The notes under the pieces: generated by a model
Told to the model about the DNA's origin: nothing
Seen by the model: only the letters and a program-made list of their open reading frames with translations
The model's database searches: none
In this document: positions 5,275-32,708 of the stretch, one piece after another
How the letters are laid out: every line of letters starts with the position of its first letter
Position numbering within the stretch: position 1 is the first letter of the stretch
Translations under genes and position numbers: made by a program
Assembly (NCBI GenBank): GCA_047611645.1
Contig: JBLFXY010000001.1
Span: 1-58,088, forward strand
Origin: Glaciecola sp.
GTDB lineage: Bacteria; Planctomycetota; UBA1135; GCA-002686595
Reading direction: 5' to 3'
DNA length: 58,088 nt

Positions 5275-6750
5275 AATCGTGCCGTTGCGAAAAGACGTGG
5301 CGTTATTGCAAGGATGCCCTGGATCGCATCCTTGCAAGCAAGACCAAGCGCGCTGAGCATGACCCTGCACAACCCGCGCTGCCTTTCCTTGGTGACGAAC
5401 TTGAATTGGAAGTCCCCGAGCACCTGAACGAAGCCAGTGACGGGGAAACAGCGGAAGACGTCATCAAGAAGCGCAACCGGCCTAAGAAAACTTCGAAGCG
5501 CATCGATACGTCCAACCTCAAGCGCGAGGATGTGATACACGAACTACCGCCCGAAGATCGTGTTTGCCCGGATACAGGTGTCCAGCTTGTCCCCATCAGC
5601 GAGACCGTCTCTGAGGAGCTCGTGTACACCAACGCGGAGTATTTCATCAGGAACCACAGGACGATCATTTACGGCCCCAGTCCTGAGGTCGCAAAGGATC
5701 GGCAAATCGCGACACGAACTGCGCCATTGCCGGTGCGCCCATTAGACAACTATTTGGCAAGTGCGAGCTTTCTTGCTTGGCTGCTGACGAGCAAGTATCG
5801 GTGTCATTTCCCGCTGTACCGCCTGGAATCGATCCTGGCAGACCGCGGATTGATGATTCCCCGAGCGCGACTTTGCGATTGGGTGCTTTCGGCAGCCTTC
5901 CTGCTGAAGCCCATCGCAGATGCAATGTTAGACGCGATTCGAGCAGGGCCGATTACGCAGCTGGACGATACACCAGTGAGCTGCCAAGGTGAAAAAGGCC
6001 AAGGCCTGTTTGAAGCTCGCTTGTGGGCGTATATCAATCCCGAAGTGGAGGGGGGTGGGCTATGCCTTCACTTCCGGTCGGGGAGGAAAGGACGCTGCGC
6101 AAATCATTGCGGGGTCCAGCGGCTACTTGGTGGGCGATGGTCTAGCGGCGCAGAAAAAGGCTGCCAGCGAAGCTGGCGACTTGAAGTCGTGCGGCTGCTG
6201 GGCGCATGCATTCCGATACTTCCGTGACTCGGTCGACGAGGATCGGGAGCGGATAACGTGCATGCTCTAACTGATGGGCCGCCTGTTTAACTTGGAAGAA
6301 GAAGCGGAAAAAGAAAACATCCCTTGGACCGAAAGGCATGACAGGCGCCAAACGGAAAACCCCGAAACCCTGAGAGCTATCTTCGCAGAGATCGGAGCCT
6401 AGCAAACCGATCCCAGCCGAGACGCCTCAAGTGGAATGGGCAAGGCCTTCACCTACCTGAACAATCAGTGGGAGACGCTGGTCCAATTCATGGAAGATGG
6501 GCGTATCCCGATCCACAACAATTCTTGTGAACGAGCGATCAGGAGCCTCGCCATCGGGAGGGAAAACTGGCTGTTCGCAGGAAGTGTCCGGGGCAGCGAA
6601 GCTGCAGCGATTCTCTTTACCTTGGTGGAGAGCTGCAAGCTGGCAGGAGTTTCACCCGCAGACTACTTCCACGACGTGCTCATTCGCGTGCGAAGCCAAC
6701 CTCTTGAGCGCATGGCCGAATTGCTACCGGCAGCCTGGTCGAACGAGTAG
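5204..6750 (+). pseudogene. tnpC: IS66 tnpC transposase, disrupted by at least 2 frameshifts and 2 in-frame stops
   Basis: Pieces lie in three frames: MPLVADLHKELVTQKARNAELEAEI... / ...VCPDTGVQLVPISETVSEELVY...YRLESILADRG... / ...GYLVGDGLAAQKK...CGCWAHAFRYFRD...-TAA(6268-6270)-LMGRLFNLEEE...-TAG(6400-6402)-...GKAFTYLNNQWETLVQFMEDGRIPIHNNSCERAIRSLAIGRENWLFAGS. Frameshifts fall near 5310 and in the G6 run at 6050-6055. Confidence 0.85.
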
Positions 6751-9078: not shown

Positions 9079-11928
9079 TTATTCAGCCTTGTCTAGCGGT
9101 CCACGAATCACGCGTTGCACTACGCCCTCAGCCGACAACACCAAGGTTGTGGGAATGGGTAAGCGTTCTAGGTCGGCCCATGGCAAGCCCACGGTCGCGC
9201 CTTCTTCACCGGCTGCCGGCAGATAGAAGGCCGGGTAAGTGGCTCCGCGGTTCTTCATGATGTTGGCCGCGCGTTGCTTGGCGCTCTCGATGTCTACCGA
9301 AATGCCGACGATGCGGATATCATCTGCATCCGCAAGGGCTTGCAGGTCAGGTATTTCTTTGACGCAAGGAGCGCAGTAACTAGCCCAAAGGTTTAGGTAC
9401 AGGGGCTTGCCAGCGGCCGTAGCTTTGACATCGAAGACGACATCTTTGCCAGAAGCGTCCTGCAGGTTGAAGTTCGGCAGGGTTTCGCCGATGCGAACGG
9501 TCAAACCGGCGGGCAAAGGATCCGGCAGGGGCTGGGGCTTTGCTGCGAAGGTTTCGATCTTGTCGGCGCCCTCCACCAGCAGCACACGCGAGCCGGCCGG
9601 CACGTTTTCGAAGACATCCGAATGACCGCCGGGCCATTGAACCAAAAGATTCACCTGCTTTGCTTGACCCACTCCAAAGATCAACTCGGGAACTTGGCAA
9701 GATGCGATTCCTGCACCGCGCGAAAGGACTTGGGCGGTTTGTGAATCACCGATCACAGCGGTCACCTGAGCGCCGATGGCTTCGTATTGTCCGGAGGTCG
9801 CGCGCAAACGAACCTTGATGAACTGACCGTAGTCCGCGTTCAATTCGTTGCGATACAAGGCATGCCTCTCGCGCTGTAACTCGTGCACGAACAGGTCCAC
9901 GTCGCCGTCATCGTCGAAGTCAGCCGCCACGATGGAGCGTCCGTCGTTCGGGGAGTCTGCTCCGGAGAACTGGGAAAGGTCCGCGAAGGTTCCATCGCCC
10001 CGATTGATCCAAACCTTGTCCCGTTCATTGCCACTGAACGAGCGGCCTTCCTGGAACATTTGGTTGTTGTGGCGGGAGAGGTAACGCGCGTTGCCCACTC
10101 CCTCAGTCAGAAGAGATTCGGTTGAATTGGCTTGGATTGAGGACGCCACCACGTGGCGCCAGTAGGTGCTTCATGTGTCATCAGGCAAGGTGCCTGTCAC
10201 AAAACCGTTCGTGCAAAACACGTCCAAGTTTCCGTCGAGGTCAAAGTCGTTCAAGGCCAAGGACCAAGCCCAAGCGCCTCCCGTTCCCCCGGCTTCTTTT
10301 GGAAAGCGTTTGAAGGTGCCATCCGCGCTGCCTTGGAATATGGAGTTGCCGGCCGCCATCTTCTTCAGCGCGGCGTAGATCTCAGGATCGATATCCTCGG
10401 TCAAGCGGTCCAGAATCCGGTTACCCGCCGTAGAGGACATGTTGGAAACGTAGAGATCCAGGATTCCGTCCGAGTTCAAATCGCCAAAAGCGCAGGCCAT
10501 GCCGTTGCCCTGATCCGCAAGGCCAAGAGCCGCAGCCTCATCCTTGAAGGTTCCATCCTTCTGGTTGATCCACATACGATTCGAACCGTAATCGTTGGCC
10601 GCATATATATCGGCCCAACCATCCCCGTTCACGTCCGCGCTTGCAGTGGCGTAGGTCCAACGGCCGCCTTGAATCCCTGCGGCTACGGAAACATCTTGGA
10701 ATCCGCGCCCTTCCAGGTTTCGCAGCAACACGTTATTGGAACCGTTGGTCGCCTCGATCCAGGAGTCGTTGTGCTCTACTTCGAGGCGGCCATAGCATGC
10801 TGCGAAGACATCCAAGTAACCATCGGAATCGAAGTCCATGACGGTCAAGTGATAGGCGGCCATCGGGCCTTTCAGTCCGAGTATTCCGATTTCGCGTTTG
10901 AAATTGCCAGCGCCATCGTTCGTGTACAGCTGGGTGGTTTGGCCTTCGGGTTTGCCGTTGTCGCCGAGCCAACCGATGTGCGCCACCAGCAAATCTTGAT
11001 CGCCATCATTGTCAAAGTCGAAGAATACAGTGCCGGTGCCGGCGGCGGGCTGTGCGACGCCGTGTGCCTCTGCAACTTCTTTGAAGGTGCCATCGTCTTT
11101 GGCGAGGTACAGATAATTGCGGCCGTCGGAGGGTACGAATAGGTCCCAATCCCCGTCACCGTCCACATCAGCACCCGCGGCGCCGTTCCATGCGTAGCTC
11201 TTGTTCTCTTCGGTGCCGAAACGCGGCCAGGTGTGTGCCACTCCCGCCGCCGCCGCCACGTTGGTGAACAGAGGCCCGCCATCTCGCTGCTTCACACCGA
11301 GTGAAGTGAGTGTGAACTTGTTGATTTTCCACGCTCCACGCTGCTTGGTGACCTTCACGTAACCCCAACCAGAAACCGCAATGGGTTCCAGGTTTTGGTC
11401 ACTACCGGTCATGACGATGTTCAATTTGATTTTGCCCCAAGACCTGCGCCCGCTTTGGAATTCTGCGCCTTTCACTTTCCAGATGACCTGCTCGACGCGC
11501 TGCCAGGAGCTCAAGAATCCTGAAACCGAATCCATGAACGCATCTGCGCCGACCGTCTGGGCGCTTTCAGACTTCCAGCTCTGGACTTGAACACCGAGCG
11601 GCAGGCTCTGGGTGTCTCCATTCTCGAGCGGGCTTAGAGCCTGTCCTTCGAAGTCTTCGGCCAGCCAAGTGCGGGCGGCTTCAAAGTTGCGCCGCTTCAA
11701 CTTGTCCGAAAAATCAAGCAGCCAATCGGCCACTTCCTCGGACAGGTCCTCAACCAACTCCATGTGGGTCACAGGCTTGGAGGGATCCTCGATGGTCAAG
11801 TCCGTCGCCTGGCCATCAGAGCTTTGTACCGCAACGGATTCCGCGTTGGAACAGCTACTGATTCCAAACAGGAGAGCGGCACCTAGGACCACGATTGCGC
11901 TGGGCAAGAGCGTTTTATTCATCAACAT
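9079..11928 (-). CDS. CRTAC1 / ASPIC-UnbV family FG-GAP repeat protein fused to a C-terminal TlpA-like thioredoxin domain, interrupted by one in-frame TGA (10171-10173)
   Basis: ORFs 10171..11928 and 9079..10152 are in the same frame: ...FCTNGFVTGTLPDDT-TGA-STYWRHVVASSIQ... There is an N-terminal signal/lipobox (ISSC) and FG-GAP/VCBS repeats (DxDGDGxxDL). An UnbV_ASPIC-like block reads GAQVTAVIG...ELIFGVGQAKQVNLLVQWPGG. The thioredoxin motif is LNLWASYCAPC with PTTLVLSAEG. Confidence 0.8.
10141..10160 (-). promoter_or_regulatory. hairpin starting 11 nt downstream of the in-frame UGA (SECIS-like candidate)
   Basis: The mRNA GGCGCCAC-GUG-GUGGCGUC forms 6-8 bp including one G-U pair, with a G-containing apical loop about 20-24 nt after the UGA. 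Confidence 0.35.
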
Positions 11929-27319: not shown

Positions 27320-28510
27320 TCAGCCCAACTCAGCACGCACGCCGGCAGCCAAAGCTGCGTAGTTCTCCACTCGGTTGTAGAGGTGCGCGGAGAGGCGAAT
27401 CAGCCGACTTGGCTTGCCCGGATAGTTGAACACGGGAATCTCAACCTTGTGGTTCTCCCATAGCGCCGTGTGCAGAGGATCCGGAATAAACGGACCCGTA
27501 ATGACATCGGGAGAGAGATCCGGCAGCGTCGCTGCCGCCAGGTTCCCTATCATCGAATCGGGTGCGGGAGCCGGAATATCCAAGGCCTCGCACAGTAAGT
27601 CGCGGCCATGCAGGGCCATGGCTCGATTCGTGGAATAAATTTCATTCCATCCGCCAGGCAAGAGTTGCCCCAGAGCGTCAATGGACTTTGCCAAGCACAG
27701 CATCGGTGTGGGGTCCACCGTTCCAGGCCAATCGAAGTCGGTCTGAATTTGCGTGTACCCTTCCCTTGGACTGTTTGCGCCGTGGCTGATGATCGCGGGC
27801 ACGATGCGGTCGCGTCGATCCTCGCGCACGTACAGCATGCCCACGGTCTTCGGGGCGCACAGCCACTTGTGGCCATTCGCCACGTAGTACGGAGCGTTGA
27901 GCTTGCGCAGATCGAGGGGCAGCATTCCAGGACCGTGTGCGCCATCCACGATCGTATCGATGCCCCGGGCCTCCATACCCTGCAGGATTCGCTCGATCGG
28001 AAAAATCAAACCGGTCGGGCTGGTCACGTGATCGATCAGGGCTAATTTCGTGCGGGGTGTTACCGCAGCCTCGATGGCTTCGACGACCTGGTCCTCCGAC
28101 TTTAACGGGAAGGGCACATCGGCAACCACCACCTTGGCCCCCCACCGATCGGCCACAAACTGCAATACGTTCTGACACGCGTTGTACCCATGGTTCGTGC
28201 AGAGAAGCTCGTCGCCGGGTTCGAACCGCATGGAGCGCAAGACCGCATTGATTCCCGCGGTGGCGTTGCTGGTAAACACGAGGCCAGCCGGATCCGCACC
28301 GACAAACTCCGCCACACGCTCGCGTGCCGCGTCAAAAAGAGGAGGCAAGGCGCGCAAAAGGAAATCAACCGGCTCGCGCTCTAAGCGATCGCGATAGTCC
28401 TGCTGAATCTCCTGAATTTCCGCCAAGACCGCGCCAAAGGAACCATGGTTCAGGAAGTGGACTTTAGGGTCTAAAGTCCAATTGGAGGCGATTGCTGAAT
28501 GATTCGGCAT
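27320..28510 (-). CDS. class V PLP-dependent aminotransferase-fold enzyme (isopenicillin-N-epimerase / cysteine-desulfurase-like)
   Basis: FLNHGSFGAV at the N-terminus, DGAHG, and ANGHKWLCAPKTVGMLYV carrying the PLP lysine. Confidence 0.75.
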   Translation of the reverse strand: MPNHSAIASNWTLDPKVHFLNHGSFGAVLAEIQEIQQDYRDRLEREPVDFLLRALPPLFDAARERVAEFVGADPAGLVFTSNATAGINAVLRSMRFEPGDELLCTNHGYNACQNVLQFVADRWGAKVVVADVPFPLKSEDQVVEAIEAAVTPRTKLALIDHVTSPTGLIFPIERILQGMEARGIDTIVDGAHGPGMLPLDLRKLNAPYYVANGHKWLCAPKTVGMLYVREDRRDRIVPAIISHGANSPREGYTQIQTDFDWPGTVDPTPMLCLAKSIDALGQLLPGGWNEIYSTNRAMALHGRDLLCEALDIPAPAPDSMIGNLAAATLPDLSPDVITGPFIPDPLHTALWENHKVEIPVFNYPGKPSRLIRLSAHLYNRVENYAALAAGVRAELG

Positions 28511-28521
28511 GAAAGTTAAGG

Positions 28522-29733
28522 CTAGTTCTTGGCCGGCATGTCATCCACGTCCACGGCATAAGATGAGAACCAATTGGTGCGGAAGAAATGCTCCAGGCGA
28601 TCGGCCATGCCATCCCCTGTCATCATGACTCCCACGTTACGGCTCTTGAAAAAGTAGCCCCGTTCCCAATTCGAGGTGCCCAACCAAGACTCCTTGTGGT
28701 CCGCGATGAGGTATTTGGCGTGGATTACACGGGCGAAAGGAATGTGTCCTCCAGTGTGTTCGGGAATCGTTACCAAGCGCAGTCCAATACCCTCCAACGC
28801 AGCCAAGTCGCGCAGACCTTCGATGACGCCCTTGCGATCGCACCAATCGGCGACCAGGATGCGCACTCGAACACCGCGCGCCGCCGCGCGAACCAAAGCA
28901 TCCTCCAGCTCTTCAAAGTGCTTGCCGTCGTAGCCGACTAAATCCAACGTCAACACTTGCAAGTAGAGCGTCTTCTCAGCCGCATCGATCATCGCTTTGA
29001 TCAATGGCAGGTCCCAAGTGCTCTCATCGGGCAACAATCCCGTAGGACTAAACGCAGGGCGCAAAGTCACCCAAAGGTCATGCTTGCCGCGCACTTGAGC
29101 GGGGTCCATGAGGCACTCGATGGCGAGGCTTTTCTCCGACGCAAGAACTACAGGCGGCTGCTTGCCCTGCGCCAATGCCCAATCGTGATCGAACACATCT
29201 AACAGTGCGCGCCCAAACTGCTCGCTATGAATGCGCAACCCCAACTCCTGAATGTGCTCCAAAGCCCTCCAATCGAAGTTTGCACTGCCCAGGTACGTGT
29301 CATTGCCATCGATCACCATGTACTTGGAATGCTGCACACCTCCCGTCAGCTCTATCATATTCCACAAAACCATGTCCACGTGGGGATCTTCGGTAAAGCG
29401 CTCGATCAGCTCGGGGTAGGTGGCTTGAAATTTCTCGCCGGCCAAAAATCGCACGCGCACACCGCGGGCCGCAGCATCCTCGATGGCATGAATAATCGGC
29501 GTCAACAGGTCACCTTCCCTAGCGTGTAGGTAAAAGTGGCACAGATCGATGCTCTCGCGCGCGCCTTCGATCATTTTTAGCCAGACCACCGAGGTCTCAG
29601 GAATCTCAGGAGATCCAAGCACCGTGCCAACGGGGGTTGTCTCCACCAAGGACACGGTGGCGGGGCCGATCGCTGCACAGGATGCCAGCGAACCCAAGAG
29701 GGAGACGGCCAACCATTGATTCAACTTCTTCAT
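28522..29733 (-). CDS. phospholipase D-family lipoprotein with two HKD motifs
   Basis: ATG 29733 gives MKKLNQWLAVSLLGSLASCAA (lipobox). The HKD motifs are HSKYMVIDGNDTYLGSANF and HAKYLIADHKESWLGTSNW. Confidence 0.8.
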   Translation of the reverse strand: MKKLNQWLAVSLLGSLASCAAIGPATVSLVETTPVGTVLGSPEIPETSVVWLKMIEGARESIDLCHFYLHAREGDLLTPIIHAIEDAAARGVRVRFLAGEKFQATYPELIERFTEDPHVDMVLWNMIELTGGVQHSKYMVIDGNDTYLGSANFDWRALEHIQELGLRIHSEQFGRALLDVFDHDWALAQGKQPPVVLASEKSLAIECLMDPAQVRGKHDLWVTLRPAFSPTGLLPDESTWDLPLIKAMIDAAEKTLYLQVLTLDLVGYDGKHFEELEDALVRAAARGVRVRILVADWCDRKGVIEGLRDLAALEGIGLRLVTIPEHTGGHIPFARVIHAKYLIADHKESWLGTSNWERGYFFKSRNVGVMMTGDGMADRLEHFFRTNWFSSYAVDVDDMPAKN

Positions 29734-29832
29734 AGGCGTGGCCCGGGGCCCGGCACTTCGCCGGCCATGGGCGAGGCCCAATGTACCGAACCCTGACCCG
29801 CAGTCCACCCGCGGACCTGCCCAATGGCGACT

Positions 29833-30194
29833 CTATTTGGTCTTATTCTCCGGATTCTTAAGGCCGTTCGAACTCGATACAACACCTTCTAAGTCCACCA
29901 GCATGGCTTCGACCCGGGGCAGGGCTTCGATAATTTTTAGGCCCTCGACCGGACCCAAAACCACCATGGCTGTCGCGAGAGCATCGGCGAGGGCCGCGTC
30001 GGGGGCCAACACAGTGGCGGTGATACAACCCGTCGCCGGTCGGCCCGTGCGCGGATCCAAAATGTGGTGGTAGCGTTTGCCTCACCACAAAGATGCGCTC
30101 GTAGTCGCCGGAGGTCACCAAACAGATGCTCGCAAGGGGAATGACCGCAATGGGTTTGTGGTGGAAAAGAGATTCGCAACCCCTTCAGAAATCG
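29833..30194 (-). pseudogene. apbE: ApbE (FAD:protein FMN transferase) C-terminal remnant with a frameshift
   Basis: ESLFHHKPIAVIPLASICLVTSGDYERIFVV, then a frameshift near 30070, then [52 protein letters not shown]... Only about 115 of the expected ~300 or more codons are present, with an in-frame stop upstream at 30195-30197. Confidence 0.7.
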
Positions 30195-30211
30195 ATCCAA
30201 AGAACGCCCCC

Positions 30212-30784
30212 CTACAACCGCAAAAAGTGTCGTAGAGGGGGCGTTAGTAGGCGTGTCCAACTCCAGTGGAAGGGCTCTAAGGATTTCGGCAGGCTATGCC
30301 CCCGGTTAACGACCTCGCGCTGTGCATTCGGAAACACCACACTGGGTGTTCCTTTCACGTCGAACAGGCGCGTCAACGACAGATCGCGATCTTGAACCTG
30401 CGGGTAGGTCAATCCAAGGCTAGAAATGAACTTGCCAAGTTTAAATTTTTTCGTGCTTTTGTCAGGTCCGGAAACTACGCCAGCAATGTTCAAGCGGTCC
30501 GCAAGCTTGTGATGTGCCTTTTGCACCATAGCTGCCTCAGCCACTCAGCCAGCTCACCAAAAGACGAGCAGCATTGGCTTGTTCGCGCTCAGGGCTGTTT
30601 GCGCACCCACGTCGCTGGGCTGCCCCGAAGCCGCGGGGGTTTCGATATCGGCCGAATTCGAAAGCGATGGGCCAAGACGGAGAAATTCGTCATTTCGTAG
30701 CAGATCAATGCCCCGGCGTTGGCCCGAAAACCGCACTCGAATCTTCGACCCTTTCAACGCGGCCATGATCGACCCGGAGTCCAC
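30212..30784 (-). CDS. thioredoxin-fold (TlpA/Prx-like) protein with TGA codons at both positions of the CxxC motif; candidate UxxU selenoprotein
   Basis: ORFs 30554..30784 and 30212..30544 share one frame: ...ANKPMLLVFW-TGA(30554-30556)-A-G-TGA(30545-30547)-VAEAAMVQKAHHKLADRLNIAGVVSGPD...LTYPQVQDRD...FDVKGTPSVVF... Possible starts are GTG 30784 or ATG 30766. Confidence 0.6.
30501..30535 (-). promoter_or_regulatory. SECIS-like stem-loop 9 nt downstream of the second UGA
   Basis: The mRNA is GCAGCUAUGGUGCAAAAGGCACAUCACAAGCUUGC. The lower stem is GCAGCU/AGCU(U)GC with a bulged U. The upper stem is AU-(G)-GUGC/GCAC-AU. The apical loop is AAAAG. Confidence 0.4.
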
Positions 30785-31067
30785 TCTGGATTTGGTTTTG
30801 GTTTGTCCTTTCCAGGGAAGCTGTCACCGCTCAACGTGGAAAACTGACCGTAGCGAATTCTGAGCTCGGTGGCGCCCGCTTTGAAGCTCGCATGCCAAAT
30901 CTCGCCAAGTACCTGCCACTGGAAGGGTAAGACTTGATGTATCTTCCCTGTCCTGCTGAGCGTTAGAGATCTGCCCCCCCCAGGTTCCATGTACACTCTG
31001 CCCCACTGACAAACCGTCAATTGGACCACTTTGCCCTGTCTTTAGCCGCCTAAGCCTACCCATTAGA

Positions 31068-32708
31068 TTGCACTCCTTAGCTCCCCTTGCGCCCGCACTT
31101 CTGATGCTTGCTAGCGCCTGCAAATCTCCCGCTGAATACTCCAAAGACGCGGACGATGACACTTACGCCCTCATCACCGAACGGCGTGCTGCGCTATTCG
31201 AAACTGACGACCCCTTTCAACTAGGCGCGGCCGCAAGTGGTGTCCGAGCGCGGGCCATCAGCGGCGAACTGACCCAACTGGGCCCGCTGAGCATCCTCGA
31301 CTGCATGGTCATCGCTTCCGAATCCAATACGAGCTTCTTGGAGCAAAAGGAGTCCTTGTACTTTTCGGCTCTGAACTTGACCCAAGAGCGCTGGCGCTTT
31401 GGTGTGCGATCCGAGACCTCCGGCGGTGCGTCCATCTCTGGTGTCGGCACCAACAGCGCTACCGCGACGACCAGCGGCGATTTCACCCTTTCCAAGATTC
31501 TGGGCAGTGGAGCCGACGTTGTCTTGGGTATTGGATCTAGCCTCTTTCGATTCGTCTCCACCGGGGACGGTTGGGACGCGGTGACCGACCTTTCCTTGAG
31601 CATTTCTCAGCCCCTCCTGCGCGCTGCTGGAGCCAAGATCACCATGGAGTCGCTCACTCAATCGGAACGGTCCTTGGTTTACCAGGTACGAAGCTACGAG
31701 CGCTTTCGCCGTACTTTTTCCGTGTCGGTCGCTCGCCGTGTCTATGGCGTCTTGCAGGCCATCGACCAATTAAAGAACCAGGAATTGAACCTAGAGAACC
31801 TGCGGACCCTGCGCGTACGCAACGAGCGCCTGGCCGAAGCGGGGCAGCTCTCCGACATTCAAGCCGACCAAGCTCGCCAGGAAGAGTTGCGCTCCACGAA
31901 CCGGCTGGTCGAATTGCGCGGCGACTTCGAACGCCAGCTCGATGACTTCAAGCTGTTCCTTGGATTGCCGCCCGACCTAGAAATAGAACTGGACGATGTA
32001 GAGCTTCAACGCCTGACAGACATCGCTCCCCTGCTGGACGCGCTGACCGAAAAAGTGGCCCTGGACCTAGCCCTCACGGGTCGACTGGACGTGCAAACAT
32101 CGAGCAACCGACTCGAAGACGCCCGCCGTGGATTGGAGATTGCCGCCGACGCGCTGCGCCCGGGATTGGGGCTTGCCGTAAATGCAAGCTCTGGATCGAA
32201 GGAGGGGCAGCCCTTGCGCCACAACTTCCAGGACACCTCCTGGAGCGCGGGCCTTACCTTGGATCCGGCCTGGGATAACCTGCCGGAGCGCAACACCTAC
32301 CGCCGAGCTGAAATCGGAAGGAACGTTGCGATTCGCACCTTCGATCGCTTCCTCGACCAAGTCAACTTGGACGTGCGGGAGGCTCTACGGCGCACTCGCA
32401 ATGCCCGCGAGCGCTACTCCATCCAAAAGGGCGCGCTGGAACTATCCAAGCGCCGCGTGCGCAGTGCTGACCTTTCGCTTCAAGCCGGACGGTCGAGTAC
32501 GCGTGACCTGCTCGAAGCCCGCGAGGCGCTCCTAGGAGCGAGCAATTCAGCCACATCCTCTTTGATTGACTTCACCTTGGCTCGCTTGGACCTGCAACTC
32601 ACGCTCGAACTTTTACGCGTGGATAATACCGGTATCCAGCTACAAGAAGTCCTCCCCCAGATCACCACCCCTTCCCAGGATCCCACCGATGGCCAAGAGC
32701 AACAATAG
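31068..32708 (+). CDS. TolC-like outer-membrane efflux protein (OEP family), lipoprotein-type N-terminus
   Basis: LMLASAC lipobox, two long coiled-coil/beta repeats, and the characteristic helical heptads (LRSTNRLVELRGDFERQLDDFKLFLGLP). It is the first gene of the efflux operon. The start is TTG. Confidence 0.75.
   Translation: MHSLAPLAPALLMLASACKSPAEYSKDADDDTYALITERRAALFETDDPFQLGAAASGVRARAISGELTQLGPLSILDCMVIASESNTSFLEQKESLYFSALNLTQERWRFGVRSETSGGASISGVGTNSATATTSGDFTLSKILGSGADVVLGIGSSLFRFVSTGDGWDAVTDLSLSISQPLLRAAGAKITMESLTQSERSLVYQVRSYERFRRTFSVSVARRVYGVLQAIDQLKNQELNLENLRTLRVRNERLAEAGQLSDIQADQARQEELRSTNRLVELRGDFERQLDDFKLFLGLPPDLEIELDDVELQRLTDIAPLLDALTEKVALDLALTGRLDVQTSSNRLEDARRGLEIAADALRPGLGLAVNASSGSKEGQPLRHNFQDTSWSAGLTLDPAWDNLPERNTYRRAEIGRNVAIRTFDRFLDQVNLDVREALRRTRNARERYSIQKGALELSKRRVRSADLSLQAGRSSTRDLLEAREALLGASNSATSSLIDFTLARLDLQLTLELLRVDNTGIQLQEVLPQITTPSQDPTDGQEQQ

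Follow-up and report, generated by a model that had tools for sequence, protein, structure and literature searches.

Two in-frame TGA codons at the redox-active positions of a thioredoxin-fold reading frame raise the question of whether the frame encodes a protein with two selenocysteine (Sec, U) residues in a UxxU motif, or whether the motif has another origin. Such a frame lies on the minus strand of a 58,088-nucleotide stretch of DNA from Glaciecola sp., placed by GTDB in the Planctomycetota (assembly GCA_047611645.1, contig JBLFXY010000001.1, positions 1 to 58,088), which is referred to here as the window. In an initial annotation, made from the sequence alone, it was interpreted as a functional, SelL-like diselenide protein. 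Comparison with relatives led us to a different reading, to which we assign a probability of about 0.9: the feature is what remains of a UxxC selenoprotein gene that has decayed within a DUF3570-redoxin-ApbE module, itself dismantled. Decay produced the UxxU motif by accident: the first TGA was inherited as a Sec codon, and the second arose by plain nonsense mutation in a gene that selection had ceased to maintain.

Read from 30784 to 30212, the minus-strand frame runs ...ANKPMLLVFW-TGA-GCT-GGC-TGA-GTG GCT GAG... and continues with VAEAAMVQKAHHKL...GVVSGPD...FDVKGTPSVVF. Sequence and translation agree with the TGA-GCT-GGC-TGA arrangement described initially, and there are no other stops across the 186 sense codons. 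The conceptual protein with U replaced by C scored 28.4 bits against the Pfam AhpC-TSA profile (cutoff 26), confirming the proposed thioredoxin fold, with weak extra matches to Redoxin (21 bits) and Thioredoxin_2. Both TGAs align with the two cysteines of the C-A-G-C motif in the nearest Cys homologue, P0002 (48% identical), and they were thus correctly placed on the redox Cys positions.

A word-indexed protein search with the Cys-substituted protein returned the window itself and one Cys homologue, nothing more, and a search for loci with a two-sequence alignment gave no matches in the genome contig collection. An exhaustive profile search recovered 204 family representatives at E<1e-10, closely grouped lipoprotein redoxins that share the motif VFWQ[ST]WCxxCxxEAP...GVVSGPD...YPQVRDRD...GTPT. 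Several short family 'proteins' begin right after this motif, and on their contigs the genes are complete, interrupted once, by a TGA in frame at the first Cys. Three Sec forms were found through the protein search (L002, W*SSC; L003, W*NAC; L006, W*GSC). Metagenome and genome collections were also searched with a DNA pattern that matches the window, consisting of W-TGA-x-x-TG[A/C/T]-x-x-E, 17-19 codons, and G[VIL][VIL]xGxD. This returned 19 loci, comprising 17 true family members and 2 chance matches; 8 of the 10 true matches from named genome records are titled as Planctomycetota metagenome-assembled genomes. The protein search and the DNA pattern together gave 20 Sec-form relatives, mostly from Planctomycetota, all of them W-U-x-x-C and otherwise intact. 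UxxU occurs in none of the 20, although the DNA pattern allowed TGA at the second Cys.

A lipoprotein signal peptide is found in all relatives for which the 5' end is available. The closest relatives, L007, L019, L021 and L023, read ...KPLLLVFWQ[AS]W-U-[AGR]GC-VAEAP[ML]VQ[QK]A[HY]RKFADRLS..., with TGC at the second Cys in all four. Their N-termini carry a lipoprotein signal such as MLRNLL...SCQS, and their C-termini read ...SLEP[FY]L-stop, SLELFL-stop or SLESLLNE-stop. The first column of the motif is therefore TGA in all 20 Sec-form relatives and the second is TGC in the closest ones, which leaves one inherited Sec codon and one mutation in the window copy. The homologue comparison suggested in the initial annotation was borne out for the first column, where Cys (P0002) or TGA is found, and failed for the second, where TGA occurs in 0 of 20 Sec forms. 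Its premise of two independent nonsense mutations is superseded by the inherited origin of the first.

The window copy is also damaged elsewhere. About 35 upstream codons of the redoxin are missing, including the start codon, the signal peptide and the lipobox Cys, and in their place codons 1-41 of the composite open reading frame (ORF; 30784-30664) are the antisense strand of a histidine-kinase remnant. This assignment follows from two comparisons with L021, whose intact kinase was identified by its Pfam domains: residues 385-467 of the kinase match window 30664-30909 by tblastn (E=8.7e-13), and nucleotide alignment joins window 32855-30694 to L021 1-2171, so that the flank on the TolC side enters the composite ORF down to 30694. 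The stretch 'RVRFSGQ', considered as a decayed lipobox, was ruled out, being antisense kinase DNA. Immediately 5' of the first TGA, a 9-nt deletion has removed Q-[S/A]-W from the otherwise near-invariant FWQxW[C/U] motif. An alternative gap placement, with Sec ancestrally encoded by the second TGA, costs 6 mismatches as against 2 (counted by eye) and was rejected. At the 3' end, nucleotide alignment with the four closest relatives showed that the ancestral ...F-L-stop was removed by a 4-nt deletion.

Among the residue changes in the window copy are EAP to EAA and VRDRD to VQDRD, and its domain scores are 28 bits for AhpC-TSA and 21 bits for Redoxin, versus 45-48 bits in intact relatives. With the TGC to TGA change at the second Cys, TGGCTGCG|TGGCTGAG has become a perfect tandem 8-mer, TGGCTGAG TGGCTGAG (window 30545-30560, minus strand), at a site where relatives have the imperfect repeat (C/T)GG(C/G)TGCG|TGGCTGAG. 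Speculatively, the change could be a quasi-repeat-templated or slippage mutation and not a random hit. Judged against intact orthologues, the window copy shows the truncation and frame-affecting lesions of a pseudogene, and it has neither a complete coding sequence nor the native N-terminus, export signal and stop. The statement that nothing else in the frame was disrupted was thus mistaken. A decayed orthologue with other lesions had been named at the outset as an argument against a functional gene, and the window copy is itself such an orthologue.

The surroundings of the frame have decayed with it. In L019, L021 and L023, the gene order is a TolC-like gene on the opposite strand, histidine kinase, response regulator, DUF3570, redoxin, a GC-rich T-tailed hairpin, ApbE, a PLD-like lipoprotein and a class-V aminotransferase; in L005, the redoxin is likewise followed by ApbE. 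The kinase and response regulator form a two-component system, and DUF3570 is an outer-membrane protein. The outer genes are retained in the window (Table 1), while the response regulator and DUF3570 of the relatives' module are absent from it by alignment and by tblastn against relatives. The ApbE relic was detected as two tblastn high-scoring segment pairs in frames -2 and -3, and covers positions 205-266 of the 266 positions of the Pfam ApbE profile. The GC-rich hairpin between the redoxin and ApbE was not listed by a simple terminator scan; the redoxin stop of L007 and L021 is followed by a GC-rich, T-tailed stretch resembling it (alignment read by eye). Elsewhere on the contig, a plus-strand ORF (5406-6227) contains a partial IS66-family transposase domain (Pfam DDE_Tnp_IS66 profile positions 3-122 of 284), which suggests a truncated insertion-sequence remnant.

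Table 1 Features of the window considered in this analysis.
Feature	Position	Strand	Description
Composite frame	30212..30784	minus	76 codons, TGA, A, G, TGA, 110 codons; open frame of chimeric make-up rather than an intact gene
First TGA	30554..30556	minus	inherited Sec codon of the family W-U-x-x-C; TGA here in 20/20 Sec-form relatives
Second TGA	30545..30547	minus	derived TGC to TGA change at the resolving Cys; unique to the window copy
Surviving N-terminal part of the mature redoxin domain (...AASGQPSDVGAQTALSANKPMLLVFW)	30557..30660	minus	from alignment with L007, L019, L021 and L023
Read-through extension (HWSWTRLLTPPLRHFLRL) and new stop	30212..30268	minus	18 residues; created by the 4-nt deletion
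Hairpin proposed as SECIS in the initial annotation	30501..30535	minus	-10.2 kcal/mol; starts 9 nt after the second UGA
Degraded homologue of the AGUU hairpin	30499..30512	minus	UCACA-AGCU-UGCGG in the window versus CCGCA-AGUU-UGCGG in relatives
GC-rich hairpin and T-run	30204..30244	minus	intergenic, between redoxin and ApbE
Histidine-kinase remnant	30664..30909	plus	last ~85 of 473 residues, HATPase_c tail
ApbE (flavin transferase) relic	29836..30160	minus	residues 270-378 of 378 only; frameshift near 30080
TolC	31068-32708		retained; ~71-75% nucleotide identity to relatives
PLD	28522-29808		retained; ~71-75% nucleotide identity
Class-V aminotransferase	27320-28510		retained; ~71-75% nucleotide identity
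Sec candidate gene (FG-GAP/ASPIC-UnbV/redoxin)	9079-11928	minus	one 950-codon frame, single TGA at 10171-10173

The rate of protein change in the window copy was compared with that of its sister lineage in a relative-rate test, which counted lineage-unique amino-acid changes in the window and in L023 with L019 as outgroup. The two sister lineages have equal branch lengths in intact neighbour genes, with 18 window-unique and 18 L023-unique changes for PLD (p=1.0) and 15 and 17 for the aminotransferase (p=0.86). The redoxin core gave 16 window-unique changes as against 5 for L023 (p=0.027), with a branch of 0.23 for the window versus 0.10 for L023. The window redoxin is evolving about three times faster than its sister lineage. 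The first TGA being ancestral, only one chance event is needed to account for the double TGA. In the relatives, the 131 codons that correspond to the retained part offer about 40 single-base routes to a stop, one of them at the second Cys, or about 2.4%. If 4-5% of non-synonymous changes are nonsense, the excess of about 11 amino-acid changes implies an estimated 0.5 or so nonsense changes, and a single stop is therefore unsurprising.

Bacterial Sec insertion depends on a Sec insertion sequence (SECIS) hairpin, and one had been proposed at 30535 to 30501, beginning after the second UGA. The stem-loop does fold at the energy given in Table 1 but is not notable, since its z score of -1.31 lies within the shuffled range (26 of 200 shuffles fold as well) and the wider 87-nt region around it has z = +0.41. 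Its loop, AAAAG, is without the GU of the relatives' loops. A different hairpin, with 5 bp and an AGUU loop 45-58 nt after the UGA, is found in relatives L007, L019, L021, L023, L009, L011, L015 and L006, in the forms CCGCA-AGUU-UGCGG, CGCCA-AGUU-UGGCG, CACCA-AGUU-UGGUG and CCGUA-AGUU-UGCGG. It is paired in all 8 of these loci, which are a subset chosen for sharing the hairpin and cover at least 3 subclades; compensatory changes between subclades occur at 2 pairs, and RNAalifold predicts the structure independently. Its folding energies of -5.7 to -7.2 kcal/mol correspond to z = -2.9 to -3.9.

At fixed columns, the AGUU hairpin is present in about half of all 17 aligned loci. In other subclades a hairpin seems to be placed elsewhere, and L002 and L003 have AGUU-type loops nearer the UGA. 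Because SelB recognises a G-U step in the apical loop, we infer that the AGUU hairpin is the best candidate SECIS of the redoxin clade. In the homologous stretch of the window, an A.C mismatch interrupts the stem, the loop GU has become GC, and the calculated energy is 0 kcal/mol (unfolded), so the conserved stem-loop is lost. A SECIS would in any case be inherited from the UxxC ancestor, so a functioning UxxU gene and a defunct UxxC gene could not be told apart by its presence.

Taken as a history, the decay started from a periplasmic, lipid-anchored TlpA/Prx-like redoxin with one Sec (W-U-x-x-C). A deletion of about 3.5 kb eliminated DUF3570 and the response regulator together with the greater part of the kinase and the redoxin's 5' end, and another of about 0.7 kb took two thirds of ApbE, the remainder being frameshifted. 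Within the redoxin remnant, the 9-nt deletion took Q-S/A-W and the 4-nt deletion the stop codon; the downstream AGUU hairpin, conserved in relatives, was disrupted, and the second Cys codon changed from TGC to TGA. The relic is presumably not expressed.

Several observations weigh against this account. Only the two TGAs interrupt the frame in its 186 codons, and its C-terminal two thirds keeps most of the family-conserved residues (GVVSGPD, GLTYPQV.DRD, GTP). That a nonsense mutation should fall exactly on the second active-site Cys has odds of about 1 in 40. Synonymous divergence (dS) is saturated at about 2-3, and the ratio of non-synonymous to synonymous divergence (dN/dS) is unable to separate relaxed from positive selection. 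Across the family, 17 columns are highly conserved; the window copy departs from 3 of them, and 17 of the 128 other sequences do so at as many or more; this non-outlier status fits a fairly recent loss of function. The AGUU hairpin is a candidate SECIS of the clade, and its distance from the UGA, about 46 nt, exceeds that of typical bacterial SECIS elements. Finally, the genome is represented by one contig only.

Evidence on Sec decoding by the organism came from a second gene in the window, which encodes a lipoprotein with FG-GAP repeats, an ASPIC/UnbV domain and a C-terminal CxxC redoxin domain (Table 1). Its product reads ...LPDDT-U-STYWRHVVAS..., and a SECIS-like 8-bp hairpin, GGCGCCAC-GUG-GUGGCGUC, begins 10 nt after the UGA (about 10142-10160). 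Among the best 120 of 237 homologue clusters (52-99% identical), each covers one side of the TGA only. The same ...DT-U-STYWRHVVAS... and hairpin were found in both relatives checked at the DNA level, L026 (5.29-Mb genome) and L027 (291-kb contig). The gene is likely a conserved Planctomycetota selenoprotein gene that gene callers annotate as two genes. Because of its conserved TGA and hairpin, the organism probably decodes Sec, as the initial annotation had supposed, and use of Sec by the lineage fits the first TGA of the redoxin being a former Sec codon.

Rfam (gathering-level) and ARAGORN scans found no tRNA-Sec or SECIS family in the window, which is uninformative for a 58-kb contig, and the absence of SelA, SelB and SelD from Pfam scans of about 40 window ORFs likewise means little for 58 kb. 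The class-V aminotransferase, considered as evidence of SelA, was rejected, being conserved in synteny in relatives. An FG-GAP/ASPIC-UnbV selenoprotein received no mention in a 2026 selenoproteome review or in the literature searched by domain names, and this apparently intact candidate is a more promising lead than the redoxin relic. Public gene calls routinely split Sec genes at the TGA, leaving orphan C-terminal fragments of 60-110 residues in the redoxin family and of about 355 residues in the FG-GAP/ASPIC family. In protein databases, these fragments offer a practical means of locating Sec forms.

A functional UxxU diselenide selenoprotein, as first proposed, would be a cytoplasmic redoxin translated from GTG 30784 or ATG 30766, with the hairpin at 30535-30501 aiding both UGAs. 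The exact fall of the TGAs on the CxxC cysteines and the otherwise open frame speak for it, as do a host that probably decodes Sec, the presence of a hairpin 9 nt after the second UGA and the reports of UxxU in bacterial Prx-like families (PMC2398784, PMC9312934, PMC13188914). The N-terminus of that protein, however, would be antisense kinase sequence with no signal peptide, its FWQxW[C/U] motif has suffered the 9-nt deletion, its stop is lost and its amino-acid change is accelerated. Its operon partners are deleted or frameshifted, the clade hairpin is broken, and the hairpin invoked is no better than shuffles. None of the 20 Sec-form relatives is UxxU, and no relative with a truncated UxxU form occurs in the collections searched. 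We consider this reading very improbable.

Equally improbable is that the second TGA is an artefact of sequencing or assembly, the true codon being TGC and the motif hence UxxC. The window comes from one metagenome-type contig, P0001 being recorded on a single contig of equal length (58088 bases). TGC is the codon here in all four closest relatives, and errors or slippage are conceivable in the context of a perfect tandem 8-mer; single-base substitutions are uncommon in consensus assemblies, however, and with TGC restored the copy would still be 5'-truncated, stopless and flanked by relics, so the conclusion that it is a relic would be unchanged. A shade less probable again is that the relic has gained a new role through recent neofunctionalisation of the periplasmic UxxC selenoprotein, being translated from a start created in the antisense kinase remnant as a cytoplasmic U-A-G-U diselenide redoxin. 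Genome-wide reassignment of TGA to a sense codon, for which nothing speaks beyond the in-frame TGAs themselves, is refuted: of 28 Pfam-supported ORFs in the window, 16 end in TGA, which makes it the most frequent ordinary stop, so there is no global recoding and the code is standard, and the other long ORFs are without in-frame TGA, the conserved FG-GAP/ASPIC-UnbV/redoxin Sec candidate excepted.

The preferred reading, a decayed UxxC gene, bears on how double TGA codons are to be interpreted. In a lineage that uses Sec, a TGA at a Cys position can be inherited, so a double TGA at CxxC needs one extra mutation, and orthologues and gene integrity are to be checked before a UxxU call is made. The comparison also documents a clade of UxxC redoxin selenoproteins in Planctomycetota, with DUF3570-redoxin-ApbE order and a covarying AGUU hairpin proposed as its SECIS. 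Relative to that gene order in L019, L021 and L023, the window keeps the redoxin-to-ApbE order and the flanking TolC, PLD and aminotransferase genes, but only tails of the kinase and ApbE are left, and DUF3570 and the response regulator are gone.

Catalogued prokaryotic selenoproteins include UxxC and UxxU forms of a Prx-like thiol:disulfide oxidoreductase (PF00578) and a UxxC Redoxin family protein (PF08534) (PMC9312934, PMC13188914). The redoxin family described here resembles these Prx-like/TlpA-like selenoproteins in its thioredoxin fold with AhpC-TSA/Redoxin matches, in having Sec as the first residue of the CxxC motif, aligned with Cys, and in the hairpin after the UGA of intact relatives. 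The window copy differs in being a truncated, lesion-bearing relic with a second TGA that no relative shares. UxxU motifs in the marine 'Prx-like 2' (GOS) family and in SelL were reported in 2007-2008 (PMC2398784, which cites Shchedrina et al. 2007). The window frame shares with these proteins TGA at both CxxC-type positions in a Prx-like fold, but its UxxU was seen once, in a decayed copy, and is not conserved; a Pfam scan at E<=1 gave matches to AhpC-TSA, Redoxin and Thioredoxin_2 only, and no SelL/SelP_N-like similarity. Since UxxC and UxxU Prx-like selenoproteins are already catalogued, even a genuine UxxU redoxin would have belonged to an already known kind.

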